DNA of 28,729 nt from Candidatus Saccharimonadales bacterium (lineage in GTDB: Bacteria > Patescibacteriota > Saccharimonadia > Saccharimonadales > JBDTJP01), in the NCBI GenBank assembly GCA_039935755.1, contig JBDTJP010000081.1, positions 1-28,729 of the forward strand, read 5' to 3'. Position 1 is the stretch's first letter. Every line of letters starts with the position of its first letter. Under the pieces are notes generated by a model. That model had not been told where the DNA came from. It worked only from the letters and a program-made list of their open reading frames with translations, and ran no database searches. Position numbers and translations under genes: made by a program. This document shows positions 22,964 to 28,729 of this stretch, piece by piece.

Positions 22964-24187
22964 ATGGATACTAAATTAACCGCGGAGTTTTTCCGGGGTA
23001 ATCGTGAACGTTTACGAGAACTATTTACAGGTAGAGCCCCAATTGTACTAACTGCGGCCGGTTTGCTGCAAAAAAGTACAGACACGCCCTACCCATTCTT
23101 TCAGGATGGTAATTTTTGGTATCTAACTGGAATTGATGAGCCTAACATTGTGCTTGTTATGGACAAGGGCAAAGAATATCTAATTGTGCCCGAGTTAAGC
23201 GCTAGTCGTGAAGCATTCGACGGTGCCTTGCCCCTAGAAGCCATGGCAAAGATCAGTGGCGTTAGCGAGGTTTTGACGGAAAAAGAAGGCTGGAAGCGGC
23301 TAGGATCAAGAATAAAGCGAGTCAATAGCGTTGCCGTATTGCCAGCTGCAAATTCATATATCGATGCGCTAGGTATGTACACTAACTCTGCTCGCAGGCG
23401 ACTAGTTCGCGAGATTAAACACTTCAACAGTGAGATTACTCTGCTTGATCTTCGTTTGCACTTGCAGCGTATGCGCATGGTTAAGCAACCGGGCGAATTG
23501 CAGGCTATACAACGAGCTGTTGACGCTACGGTGGATTCGTTAAAGTTCATAGAGAAGAAATTTTATGCTGGTAAATATACTAATGAATTCGAGATTGAAC
23601 ATGACTTAACTAAGCAATTTTGGAAAAATAACGCCTCAGGCCACAGCTTCGAGCCAATCGTAGCCGCAGGCAGTAAGGCCACGACTATACACCCGACTGG
23701 CAACACCGGACCTGTAAGTCCCACCGGCCAGTTGCTTATGGACGTCGGTGCATCGTACGATCACTATGCGGCAGATATTTCACGTACCTGGATGGTAGAG
23801 CCTAGCAAGCAGTTTATCTCTGTGCGTAGCGCAGTGGTGGAGGTGGCTGATTACGCCATGAGTTTATTAAAACCCGGAGTTGTCCTAAGAGCTTACGAGC
23901 AGGATATCGAGCAGTTTATGGGAGAGAAGCTACGAGAACTCGGTTTAATAAAAACAATCGAGCACGATAGTGTTAGACAGTATTTCCCTCATTCGACGTC
24001 ACATTTTCTGGGTATTGATGTTCACGATGTAGGGGATTACGATCACCCACTTGAGCCAGGCGTCATCTTAACAGTTGAGCCAGGTATATATATTCCAGAT
24101 GACGGTATAGGTGTGCGAGTCGAGGATGACGTGCTGATAACCGAAACAGGCTGCACAAATTTAAGTGCTAAGTTGGAGCGCAATTAG
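22964..24187 (+). CDS. pepP: Xaa-Pro aminopeptidase (M24B)
   Basis: N-terminal AMP_N-like region FFQDGNFWYLTG. Metal-binding motifs DVGA...ADISRT, HSTSHFLGIDVHD, TVEPGIY and GVRVEDD. An alternative TTG start is at 22958. Confidence 0.92.
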   Translation: MDTKLTAEFFRGNRERLRELFTGRAPIVLTAAGLLQKSTDTPYPFFQDGNFWYLTGIDEPNIVLVMDKGKEYLIVPELSASREAFDGALPLEAMAKISGVSEVLTEKEGWKRLGSRIKRVNSVAVLPAANSYIDALGMYTNSARRRLVREIKHFNSEITLLDLRLHLQRMRMVKQPGELQAIQRAVDATVDSLKFIEKKFYAGKYTNEFEIEHDLTKQFWKNNASGHSFEPIVAAGSKATTIHPTGNTGPVSPTGQLLMDVGASYDHYAADISRTWMVEPSKQFISVRSAVVEVADYAMSLLKPGVVLRAYEQDIEQFMGEKLRELGLIKTIEHDSVRQYFPHSTSHFLGIDVHDVGDYDHPLEPGVILTVEPGIYIPDDGIGVRVEDDVLITETGCTNLSAKLERN

Positions 24188-24204
24188 TGGTACAATATAA
24201 ACTA

Positions 24205-24570
24205 ATGAAACGGGGACCTTTTGGGCGATTTATATTAAGATGGTTCGTTTGCGGACTAGGCTTCTGGGTGGCTGCGGGTATTCTGGGCGAGCGTATAAGC
24301 TATGATCAACGTCTCGGTGTCATTATTGTTGCAGCTTTCCTGCTCGCTCTACTAAACGTAATAATTAAGCCAATTGTGGTTATATTATCACTGCCAGCTA
24401 TATTGTTCAGCTTAGGGTTATTCATGATTGTTATTAATGGCCTTATGGTAACACTGGTAAGTTGGCTTTATTCGCCGTTAAAAGTGACAAATTTTGGAGC
24501 AGCTATGCTAGCAGGTATGGTCATAGGCCTAGTCAATTATTTAGTAACTACAATCTTGGAGGAGAAATAA
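24205..24570 (+). CDS. YvlD-like 4-TM 'phage holin family' membrane protein
   Basis: LNVIIKPIVVILSLPAILFSLGLFMIVINGLM matches the YvlD/DUF360 pattern. TGGTACAAT ends 8 nt before the ATG at 24205. Confidence 0.85.
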   Translation: MKRGPFGRFILRWFVCGLGFWVAAGILGERISYDQRLGVIIVAAFLLALLNVIIKPIVVILSLPAILFSLGLFMIVINGLMVTLVSWLYSPLKVTNFGAAMLAGMVIGLVNYLVTTILEEK

Positions 24571-24783
24571 ATGACAATTTATAATTACGTAACGCTAGTT
24601 TCTGTGGTTATTGTAACAATACTTATCTTAGTACAAACTAGAGGCGCAAGTCTGGGCGCTGGTCTTGGTGGTGGTGGTGAAGTTAACACCGTGCGTCGTG
24701 GTTCCGATAAAACACTACACCAAATAACGATCATAACAGTTATTATATTTATAGCCTCGCTCTTACTGGGCATTGTGTCTTAG
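24571..24783 (+). CDS. secG: Preprotein translocase subunit SecG
   Basis: LILVQTRGASLGAGLGG, RRGSDKTL and two TM helices. SD GGAGG upstream. Confidence 0.92.
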   Translation: MTIYNYVTLVSVVIVTILILVQTRGASLGAGLGGGGEVNTVRRGSDKTLHQITIITVIIFIASLLLGIVS

Positions 24784-26598: not shown

Positions 26599-28188
26599 CT
26601 AAAGAGTCTTTACAACGTTACCCAATATATATTTAGCTTGAATCGGTCCGAATGATCTTGAGTCAACCGAGTTAGGTCTGTTATCTCCACACACGAACAC
26701 TTCGTCTGCCTGGAGCGTTATGTCTATCGTTGATGGGCTCATTATGCCATCGTCGAGATGCATGGTTTTTTGCCAAGTTGATCCGGAGTCTGGCTCGTAT
26801 CCAGTAAGGTGCAGTTTGTTGTATATAGTTACGTGTGCGCCTTTTACGACTACGCGCTCGCCAGGTAGCCCAATTACTCGTTTAATTAAGAACTCCGAGC
26901 TTCCACTTGCCTGTGGCTCCATTGCATTCAGTATTCGATTAAGTATCACAACTTCTCCCCGTTTAGGGGTGTAGCCTTTGTTTGTTAATCCGCCCCAGGT
27001 TTGGCCAAGTCGATTTACAACTACCATTTCGCCACTAGCGAATGTAGAGTCCATACTAGGGCCGTCTACTTGCTTGAGGCTCATCCCATAATTATTAACC
27101 AGAACTATAATAGCCAACGACACGAAGGTAATCGGAACTAAGTATGACAATACCTTAATTCCACTTGTTAGCTTGCTGCCTCCCTTATTTATTAATGGGT
27201 GAGTGTGTCTAACTATGAAGGATTGTATACGCTGGCTTAGTAAGGGCTTGTTTGTATAGCTGATTAAGTGGTTTCGTTTCCATAGAGCCCGCTTGTGAAC
27301 TAGACGTATAATTTTTACGAAACTCATAATAACGACTAATACCAAGGAAACTATAAATAAACGCTGAAGTATACCTTTTTGCCCATAGAACATATATATG
27401 AAGAAGTTCTTAGAGTCAAAACTTAACCAGTCTTTGTCGACGTTTTTGGTAACCACAACACGTTGTCCGGATTCGTAGTGAAGTATTGCATTCAAGCTGT
27501 GCTTACCAGGGCTTACGTATCGCATATCAAACGGCCTATAGTCGGTTTTTGCGTATGCCAGATTATTGTCTACGTAATACTGCACTTGATTAAGTGTGTC
27601 GTCGTTAGGGTTGACCGCCCTAACCACAAACAGCGTGTCGCTGCTCCCACTTATAGTGTCTGCGCGTACTGCACCTTGGGCCCCGTTTATTGATACATAA
27701 CATTCGGTTGTAGGCAGGCATGCTGGTTTAGTTTGTGAAACCAAAAGTATGCTTGGCTGGTTAAAGCTTTGTATTATCCCAGAAGATAATGCGGCTAACT
27801 GGAAATTTCCTTTGTCATGTCCGCTGACATTTGCATCGTATGATCCTACTTTCGTCCAGGAGTCACTTCGCAGGACTTGCCTGCCAATATGCAAACAGTC
27901 TTGACTTGTACCGGGCTTAACATATAAATCATCGGTTTCAGTTTCGGATGTTGATCCTAGCCGTGCATAAACATCATAAACATCTTTTTGTACGGAAAAG
28001 CTCGCATTACTACTAAAGCCGACGTTACCACAGCTAGTAGCGGTACCTTGTCCATCCATTGCTGGTGCGTCTGGAAAAGTTTGCGCATATACGGTGACCC
28101 CAAGTAATAAGATGTATATACCCATCAATATGGGTATGAGTAGATATTTTGATTGTCGCTTTTTGGTTTTGTAATTAACGGTAAACAT
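26599..28188 (-). CDS. Signal peptidase I (S26) with a large N-terminal extracellular extension
   Basis: C-terminal S26 motifs VDGPSMDST (Ser), LIKRVIGLPGERV (Lys) and GDNRPNSVDSR. N-terminal signal-like helix, about 230 aa of beta-rich sequence, and two TM helices. Confidence 0.9.
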   Translation of the reverse strand: MFTVNYKTKKRQSKYLLIPILMGIYILLLGVTVYAQTFPDAPAMDGQGTATSCGNVGFSSNASFSVQKDVYDVYARLGSTSETETDDLYVKPGTSQDCLHIGRQVLRSDSWTKVGSYDANVSGHDKGNFQLAALSSGIIQSFNQPSILLVSQTKPACLPTTECYVSINGAQGAVRADTISGSSDTLFVVRAVNPNDDTLNQVQYYVDNNLAYAKTDYRPFDMRYVSPGKHSLNAILHYESGQRVVVTKNVDKDWLSFDSKNFFIYMFYGQKGILQRLFIVSLVLVVIMSFVKIIRLVHKRALWKRNHLISYTNKPLLSQRIQSFIVRHTHPLINKGGSKLTSGIKVLSYLVPITFVSLAIIVLVNNYGMSLKQVDGPSMDSTFASGEMVVVNRLGQTWGGLTNKGYTPKRGEVVILNRILNAMEPQASGSSEFLIKRVIGLPGERVVVKGAHVTIYNKLHLTGYEPDSGSTWQKTMHLDDGIMSPSTIDITLQADEVFVCGDNRPNSVDSRSFGPIQAKYILGNVVKTL

Positions 28189-28230
28189 AACTATTTTTAC
28201 ATTCTAGCTTATATTCCTTGACCAACGAAA

Positions 28231-28290: not shown

Positions 28291-28729
28291 ATGCAAGATA
28301 CAAACAATAATGAAAATAATATTGACACTGATAGTGCCACAGACAACACAAGTACAATTCAAGAACCTATACTATCAAGTGCTGATAAAATAAACCAAAA
28401 GTGGCCAAATTCCTTGTTTAAAAAGATTCGCATGCCTAGCTCACCTAAGAACAAGAGGATTTTTGTTGGCACAAGCGTTGTGTTAGTCGTTCTTGTCGGT
28501 TCTACCGGCTGGTTCTTGTGGCAAAAACACAACAACAACGTCGCTACCCACGCAGCTACAACTAACTATTATGCCTCTACCTGCCGCAAAACCACTAGTG
28601 TAAAAACTAATACTGGTGTAAAAACAGTGAACTCAGACAAATACCTATCATGCATAGATCACTCAGTAGAAGCTAAACTAACTCGTTTATATCTTGGTGC
28701 TTTTAACCGCCAACCAGACGCAAATGGTC
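28291..28729 (+). CDS. Membrane-anchored DUF4214-like surface protein, 3' truncated by the window edge
   Basis: Not in the supplied ORF track. Hand translation gives MQDTNNNENN...KRIFVGTSVVLVVLVGSTGWFLW (TM)...TRLYLGAFNRQPDANG, open to the end. RLY-x-x-x-F-x-R-x-PD-x-x-G is the DUF4214-type motif. Confidence 0.75.
   Translation, partial: MQDTNNNENNIDTDSATDNTSTIQEPILSSADKINQKWPNSLFKKIRMPSSPKNKRIFVGTSVVLVVLVGSTGWFLWQKHNNNVATHAATTNYYASTCRKTTSVKTNTGVKTVNSDKYLSCIDHSVEAKLTRLYLGAFNRQPDANG

Follow-up and report, generated by a model that had tools for sequence, protein, structure and literature searches.

The window, by which is meant the whole stretch of 28,729 nucleotides that was analysed, is contig JBDTJP010000081.1 (positions 1-28,729) of Candidatus Saccharimonadales bacterium, assembly GCA_039935755.1, a soil Saccharibacteria genome of 627 kb in 90 contigs (68% complete). 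It carries a minus-strand gene for a type I signal peptidase (SPase I) whose catalytic domain lies behind a long N-terminal ectodomain (Table 1). A preliminary description of this DNA had noted an uninterrupted frame and a length well beyond that of the usual SPase I. Both points hold: the open reading frame and its translation are continuous over the whole gene, and the product compares with 222 aa for the separate canonical SPase I of the same genome, which has one transmembrane (TM) helix. The ATG at 28188 is the sole start that gives the N-terminal hydrophobic segment, because just five more codons are open upstream.

Table 1 Features of the accessory signal peptidase locus (positions of the window)
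Feature	Position	Strand	Basis
Accessory type I signal peptidase gene, with N-terminal ectodomain	26599..28188	-	ORF, 529 aa; stop codon 26599-26601
Signal peptide, aa 1-35; basic n-region, core 15-33, predicted SPase I site VYA-QT	28084..28188	-	Hydropathy, charge counts
Ectodomain module 1, ~aa 53-151; predicted beta-sandwich with conserved C53 and C98	27736..28032	-	AF2 model, Cys conservation
C157-x5-C163 loop and ectodomain module 2, ~aa 157-252; Big_7-like Ig fold (predicted)	27433..27720	-	Weak Big_7 match, phmmer, model strands 187-252
TM2, aa 279-297; outside to inside (predicted)	27298..27354	-	Hydropathy 2.59; model helix 271-307
Cytoplasmic basic loop (predicted), aa 298-345 (48 aa)	27154..27297	-	10 K/R, 0 D/E
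TM3, aa 346-364; inside to outside (predicted), anchor of the catalytic domain	27097..27153	-	Hydropathy 2.58; model helix 338-368
S26 catalytic domain, aa 369-529	26602..27084	-	Pfam/TIGRFAM, invariant columns, fold
Catalytic Ser378	27055-27057	-	Invariant, 64 homologues
Catalytic Lys436	26881-26883	-	Invariant, 64 homologues
Divergent neighbour ORF, cut by the contig end; candidate client	28291..28728	+	ORF listing

By every sequence and fold criterion tested, the protein is a P-type S26A signal peptidase. Peptidase_S26 (PF10502) matched aa 350-526 with E 3.4e-27 (95.9 bits, cut-off 22.9), and the signal peptidase I model TIGR02227 scored 89 bits (cut-off 47). A word-based search returned 64 full-length relatives with 28-52% identity and 86-99% coverage, all containing PF10502 and about 480-580 aa long; one of the homologue records, from Candidatus Saccharibacteria bacterium, is labelled 'signal peptidase I'. 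Across these 64 sequences G501, N503, R504, S507, D509, S510 and R511 of box E show no variation, while D502 is kept in at least 90%. Ser378, in the box B motif G-x-S-M, and Lys436, in the box D motif K-R-V-I-G-L-P-G, are shared with the canonical clade. Foldseek matched the catalytic fold to SpsB (4wvh) and LepB (1t7d) with E ~1e-6 and probability 1.0. The S26 domain is predicted to cleave signal peptides at A-x-A sites, and a normal, active enzyme forms part of the best explanation of the locus.

Three other kinds of S26 protein were considered and ruled out. An enzyme of the SipW/ER type does not fit, as the general base, Lys436, is invariant and is not His. An inactive chaperone of the SipA/LepA type does not fit either, since the catalytic Ser and Lys are both present and invariant. 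The model for conjugative TraF signal peptidases (TIGR02771) gave 33.7 bits against a cut-off of 100.25.

Hydropathy analysis gave three membrane segments, at aa 15-33, 279-297 and 346-364. The N-terminal tail before the first has five K/R and no D/E, and an A-x-A-type site follows this first segment in most of the 64 homologues, as judged by eye. The basic loop starts with a conserved juxtamembrane motif, R..H.R..W.R.H, in which H307 is at least 90% conserved in the fused proteins. The predicted topology therefore has the N-terminus inside, the ectodomain outside, the basic loop inside and the catalytic domain outside; an outer-face catalytic domain directly after its membrane anchor is consistent with both hydropathy and the positive-inside rule. 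It is plausible that the peptidase removes its own putative signal peptide. The anatomy first read from the sequence was correct: a signal peptide and a beta-rich, Cys-containing ectodomain, then a pair of TM helices flanking a basic loop, and last an S26 domain that is intact.

In AF2 models the ectodomain (about 220 aa) forms two beta-sandwich modules, at approximately aa 58-151 and 164-252. The whole protein was modelled with pLDDT 81.7 and pTM 0.73, and the ectodomain alone with pLDDT 91.5 and pTM 0.87. Among the 64 homologues C98, C157 and C163 do not vary, and C53 is kept in at least 90%; C53 probably forms a disulfide with C98, and a second would close the C157-x5-C163 loop.

The N-terminal 300 aa gave no significant family in Pfam or NCBIfam. 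When the PDB was searched with a sequence profile of the whole family, S26 chains were matched exclusively, and Foldseek with the whole model gave PDB matches limited to S26. With the ectodomain model alone, Foldseek found nothing in the PDB at E <1e-3 and only generic beta-sandwiches. The Ig-like segment of the preliminary description (VQYYVDNN...) lies inside module 2, and its assignment stands in part: the region matched a protein with four Big_7 repeats by phmmer (E 2.8e-11), whereas the direct Pfam match to Big_7 was weak (E 0.16, 13 bits, gathering cut-off 24.1).

These likenesses suggest one possible role for the ectodomain, in which a carbohydrate-binding (CBM) and an Ig-like module would bind the cell's own wall polymers or a host surface and focus cleavage there, for example in the host-contact zone. 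The language-model neighbours of the ectodomain, which are CBM6/CBM35 plus PKD or Big_7 proteins, point this way, as do its structure neighbours, wall enzymes with Big_7, the link of module 2 to Big_7 repeats and weak matches to Golvesin_C in five members. The CBM6/35 likeness of module 1 is, however, a weak language-model lead, its atlas score of 0.81 being reached by shuffled sequences one third of the time. Module 1 gave no Pfam CBM match and no PDB fold match at E <1e-3, and residues that would bind sugar were not identified. Such a glycan-targeted peptidase is considered improbable.

As the ectodomain and the S26 domain might have been joined artificially, the integrity of the gene was examined. 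The ORF is tiled by contigs from an independent assembly, made from a soil metagenome run (depth about 12). The junction between ectodomain and S26 domain, 27156-27405, lies inside a single contig of 512 nt at depth 12, without an indel or a joint; the one difference in that contig, at 27289, is synonymous and falls on the third position of an Arg codon. An exhaustive phmmer search with the ectodomain alone gave 135 cluster representatives, and 79 of the 106 aligned were of the fused form (450 aa or longer). Counted at 50% identity, no fewer than 79 clusters, drawn from many independent assemblies, have the full architecture, which the preliminary description had asked to be looked for in other genomes. 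A whole-protein alignment scan of genome contigs returned mostly generic S26 genes.

About 23 of the ectodomain clusters are stand-alone proteins of 298-331 aa without an S26 domain. In them a signal peptide and the ectodomain are followed by a single TM helix and a short tail of basic character, whose motif, R..H.(K/R)..(Y/W).R..HG, is the one that the fused proteins have after TM2. All 8 of the 8 loci of this kind that were examined, five in genomes and three metagenomic, have an S26 gene of 174-248 aa directly next to the split ectodomain gene, with the two genes convergent and their 3' ends touching or overlapping. The constant adjacency of the two genes argues that the two proteins work together. 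The relation between the split and fused forms is a Rosetta-stone link between the ectodomain and the S26 part.

The split state occurs in four sister families. This bears on the preliminary description, in which homologues with two separate genes were to be taken as a sign of mis-assembly or of a lost stop codon. Separate genes do exist in these sister lineages, which is the one point in favour of an artefact, but they are convergent, so that readthrough of a stop codon could not fuse them, and the fused form is conserved. Convergent genes cannot be fused by stop loss, and the fused form is therefore a true rearrangement. With independent contigs crossing the junction without indels, a continuous frame and full-length homologues of the fused form, mis-assembly or a lost stop codon was rejected, its probability being close to nil. 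The fused gene would have arisen by fusion of two neighbouring genes, or else the pair by fission of a fused gene. Fused and split loci have a neighbourhood in common, comprising RuvX, YceG, LysM/CHAP and Obg, followed by ExoI and UvrA, which suggests that they are positional orthologues. No operon partner is conserved across the whole family; the context varies save for the YceG-Obg-ExoI block and a group of small proteins described below.

Within the same order, 301 genomes were sampled and 62 matched the ectodomain profile. Some 30 of the 62 matches were strong, about 19-20 of them fused and 9-10 split, the split ones belonging to four families. When 401 genomes from across the phylum were sampled, strong ectodomain matches were confined to that order.

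The preliminary description had called for a search for a separate canonical lepB, and one is generally present. Besides the 222-aa enzyme of this genome, a separate canonical signal peptidase of about 200-260 aa was found in nine of ten other carrier genomes checked; in the tenth, G447, the fused copy alone was found, without a separate canonical enzyme. Bit scores in carrier genomes were about 120-140 for the canonical and about 93-114 for the accessory protein. A mini form is usually present too, and in this genome it is an extra S26-like ORF of 97 aa.

In a maximum-likelihood tree of S26 sequences, whose outgroup was not monophyletic when rooting was attempted, the fused, split-adjacent and canonical sequences each fell on one side of a branch, with support of 100/99, 97/95 and 94/85 respectively. 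The grouping of fused with split-adjacent sequences was weakly supported (73/68). The earlier idea of a specialised peptidase is borne out to the extent that the protein is a second paralogue beside a canonical enzyme, forms a clade of its own and carries the ectodomain as a partner module. In the fused clade a median of 14 residues separates the catalytic Ser from the end of the hydrophobic anchor; for canonical and split-adjacent sequences the median is 9. When the fused and canonical clades were compared, no column was found in which the two hold different residues each kept at 80% or more. Nothing in the active site therefore points to a changed specificity.

This last result is what would be expected of a redundant housekeeping paralogue, that is, a signal peptidase of general use that does not prefer particular clients and whose ectodomain is a stalk or stabiliser, for example a spacer for a thick envelope. 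Its catalytic core would be the same as that of the canonical enzyme at conserved positions, as is observed, and the variable gene context and the lack of support for the predicted interfaces (see below) agree with it. It would be surprising, however, for a spacer to be maintained as a membrane protein in its own right, invariably encoded next to an S26 gene of its own. Nor would four conserved cysteines and a conserved cytoplasmic tail motif be expected of a spacer over at least 100 clusters. Redundancy of this kind is considered unlikely, though more likely than the other alternatives.

The explanation that we favour, and regard as probable, is that the protein is an accessory SPase I of Saccharimonadales-type Saccharibacteria that is active and has a dedicated outer-face partner permanently attached. 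The Sec machinery would insert the protein into the membrane, and its signal peptide would be cut at the VYA-QT site, whether by the housekeeping enzyme or by a second molecule of the accessory one. This would leave the disulfide-stabilised, two-module ectodomain outside the cell, tethered by TM2, while the basic loop would remain in the cytoplasm and TM3 would place the Ser378/Lys436 catalytic domain on the outer face beside the ectodomain. There the ectodomain may act as a built-in accessory subunit, either to recruit or retain some of the exported proteins or to position the enzyme in the envelope.

For the first of these functions the ectodomain would have a role in choosing substrates. 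In the preliminary description the ectodomain selects substrates or senses a ligand, and this claim gained no support from the analysis: there was no family or fold match, the complex scores described below were under the mark, and the catalytic pocket is like that of the housekeeping enzyme.

The best candidate clients would be small secreted proteins that have a basic leader and end in Cys, and that are often encoded next to the peptidase. This family, found beside many of the loci, comprises proteins of about 160-190 aa with a very basic N-terminus, one hydrophobic segment, the motif ..S-L-K-A-x-A.., in which the two Ala are nearly invariant, an A-C-K motif and Cys as the last residue. Two Cys are conserved. 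The predicted A-x-A site is unusually far from the hydrophobic core (about 8-15 residues, by eye). The gene is usually divergent from the fused gene, whereas in split loci it lies upstream of the S26 gene, and it is often present in two or three tandem copies. No Pfam, PDB or atlas assignment was obtained for the small proteins. Their profile matched 28 of the 301 genomes, 21 of which also have the ectodomain, against a baseline of 62/301, these counts being raised by shared ancestry and not phylogenetically independent. A copy directly adjoins the locus in about 14 genomes, under half of the strong carriers. The clear homologue in the present genome is on another contig, where it adjoins a sortase-like gene. 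The small Cys-ending proteins are put forward as candidate substrates of the accessory peptidase.

In the window itself, the neighbouring ORF at 28291-28728 encodes an acidic N-terminus, a basic patch, a TM helix, the motifs 'VATHA' and 'STCRK' and the first residues of a DUF4214-looking motif. It had no Pfam match, and DUF4214 had no match in the 68%-complete genome. Its leader is comparable in form to that of the small proteins, and its match to their profile was not significant (E 0.081). The case for its product as a client of the accessory peptidase is only suggestive.

A complex of the ectodomain with the soluble catalytic domain was predicted with a score of 0.01, which counts neither for nor against binding. 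A full-length homologue, P0012, together with its neighbouring small protein scored 0.22, below the mark of 0.32 and obtained without controls, and this likewise counts neither for nor against binding. In this sub-threshold model the segment H-S-L-K-A-K-A-S-G of the small protein is set against the residues around Ser388 and Lys447 of P0012, which correspond to Ser378 and Lys436 of the protein described here. Docking of this sort might occur with any signal peptide in any SPase model.

The arrangement of an ectodomain protein, a peptidase and small secreted proteins recalls the tapA-sipW-tasA operon of Bacillus subtilis. As in the present case, SipW is an extra, dedicated peptidase genetically linked to a beta-sandwich accessory protein and to small secreted subunits. 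It belongs to the ER type, with Ser and His as catalytic residues, and its accessory protein TapA is a chain of its own; here the base is Lys and the accessory module is fused or encoded convergently. The likeness is one of functional analogy. The logic of tapA-sipW-tasA provides the nearest such analogy (bioRxiv 10.1101/2022.04.22.489182).

By analogy with it, the locus would be a three-part surface assembly, with the ectodomain as a TapA-like anchor, the S26 enzyme as leader peptidase and the small Cys proteins as subunits of a fibre or layer. Adjacency of the small proteins in about 14 genomes, often as tandem copies, fits such an assembly; yet more than half of the carriers lack it, and the ORF at 28291-28728 is not significantly related to the family. 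The A-x-A and two Cys conserved in the small proteins, and the sortase-like neighbour of this genome's homologue, are in keeping with it too, but the small proteins have no family or fold match and no TasA (PF12389) was found in the 68%-complete genome. The placing of the A-x-A segment at the catalytic Ser and Lys, which would also favour it, comes from the uncontrolled model with a score under the mark, and might be seen with any signal peptide. No relation of the neighbours of the accessory locus to TasA or TapA was detectable. An assembly of this kind is very unlikely. A related reading, to which we give a small but somewhat larger chance, is a previously unrecognised, Saccharibacteria-specific surface-assembly module made up of the ectodomain protein, its own peptidase and the small Cys proteins. 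In such a P-type counterpart of tapA-sipW-tasA the ectodomain would capture the small proteins and the fused peptidase would release them into a structure that serves the epibiotic lifestyle. The distant A-x-A site of the small proteins belongs to this picture, as does the catalytic Ser of the fused peptidase, which lies about 5 residues further from its anchor than that of the housekeeping enzyme.

The accessory peptidase that we favour can also be set beside other S26 proteins. E. coli LepB and S. aureus SpsB, both P-type S26A, have the same Ser-Lys dyad, boxes B, D and E and fold. Their catalytic domain is held outside by a preceding TM helix, as is predicted here, and in LepB it follows a TM-cytoplasmic loop-TM unit, again as predicted here. 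The accessory enzyme differs from both in some 260 extra N-terminal residues, which contain a predicted cleavable signal peptide and the two-module ectodomain, and in being a second, lineage-restricted paralogue beside a canonical enzyme. To our knowledge no characterised SPase I has such an ectodomain of two beta-sandwiches. SipA/LepA, the pilus polymerisation factor of Streptococcus pyogenes (PDB 4n31), is an S26-fold paralogue used in surface assembly and was a structural neighbour in the fold search. SipA is without catalytic residues and acts as a chaperone, whereas the accessory enzyme retains all of them.

The Saccharibacteria live as ultrasmall epibionts, and their genomes are reduced. 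That about one fifth of one order keeps a second signal peptidase with a dedicated outer-face partner, fused or adjacent, implies that export includes a specialised step. For attachment to the host, surface and secreted proteins should be important, and a dedicated route for processing them would be worth knowing. The split/fused pair provides a clean, testable bacterial case of a signal peptidase with an accessory subunit, and its context singles out a set of small secreted proteins that may be its clients. With at least 100 clusters, the ectodomain makes up a domain family that lacks annotation, and the databases label the proteins plainly as 'signal peptidase I'. No description of the fused architecture was found in the literature searched; for the cultured strain TM7x, two SPase I genes are mentioned in generic terms (PMC10768705).

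The locus encoding the ectodomain and the S26 peptidase is recurrently adjoined by genes for a family of small secreted proteins, the candidate substrates of the fused peptidase, which are unannotated, about 160-190 aa long and commonly present in tandem copies. Their layout is a basic N-terminus, a TM helix, SLKAxA, ACK and a Cys as the final residue. A member also lies upstream of the fused ectodomain-peptidase genes in G665, where the fused gene occurs twice in tandem. The genome containing the window has a homologue of 218 aa (E 9.7e-9), and directly downstream of it lies an ORF of 392 aa in which ..S-L-I-T-C-D-P-P-G.. resembles a sortase motif.

Next to a split-form ectodomain gene in G151 is a gene whose product has a type IV prepilin-like motif at its start, G|F-S-H-F-E, then a hydrophobic helix. 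The ACK motif is also present in this product, which was placed in alignment A6 by eye. Two-component systems (response regulator and HisKA kinase) adjoin the fused or split locus in 4 loci.

Features at the loci studied (window, the 28,729-nt stretch containing the fused gene; L, other loci)
Feature	Position	Strand	Remark
Small-protein family member	L069:5216-5743	-	Alignments A4 and A6
Small-protein family member	L069:4536-5066	-	Alignments A4 and A6
Small-protein family member	L068:5269-5826	-	Alignments A4 and A6
Small-protein family member	L006:5337-5879	-	Alignments A4 and A6
Small-protein family member	L012:1676-2653	-	Alignments A4 and A6
218-aa homologue	L076:1489-2145		G000, contig C75
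392-aa ORF	L076:2300-3478		G000, contig C75
Protein with prepilin-like motif	L062:7692-8324	+	G151
Tandem fused genes	L075:2672-4138, L075:4199-5746		G665, contig C71
Two-component system	L008:5376-7320		Adjoins fused or split locus
Two-component system	L013:2835-4540		Adjoins fused or split locus
Two-component systems	L066, L067		Adjoin fused or split locus
Region upstream of fused gene	window 28189-28230	-	
Divergent ORF	window 28291-28728	+	
Holin-family gene and 70-aa ORF	window 24187-24783	+	
97-aa mini-protein	L003:1342-1635		G000, contig C64

In the window, the region ahead of the fused gene's ATG at 28188 has no clear Shine-Dalgarno sequence. As a TAGAAT box lies ~13 nt upstream of this ATG, the transcript may be leaderless or begin a very short distance ahead of the start codon. 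Divergent from the fused gene is an ORF ended by the contig edge, encoding in order an acidic N-terminus, a basic patch, a TM helix, 'VATHA' and a DUF4214-looking motif, the last of which was not confirmed by profile searches.

Elsewhere in the window lie two genes for membrane proteins, the first encoding a 127-aa member of the Phage_holin_4_2 family (E 8e-23) and the second, after it, a 70-aa product with two helices. This pair is flanked by genes for an M24 aminopeptidase and an SBP_bac_5 solute-binding protein, and no phage context was seen around it.

The genome containing the window also encodes an S26/S24-like mini-protein of 97 aa, which lacks a TM helix (motifs G-H-S-M ... G-D-H-S..S-Q-D-S-R). 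Open frames of ~100-145 aa with similar S26 matches were found in most of the order's genomes that were checked.
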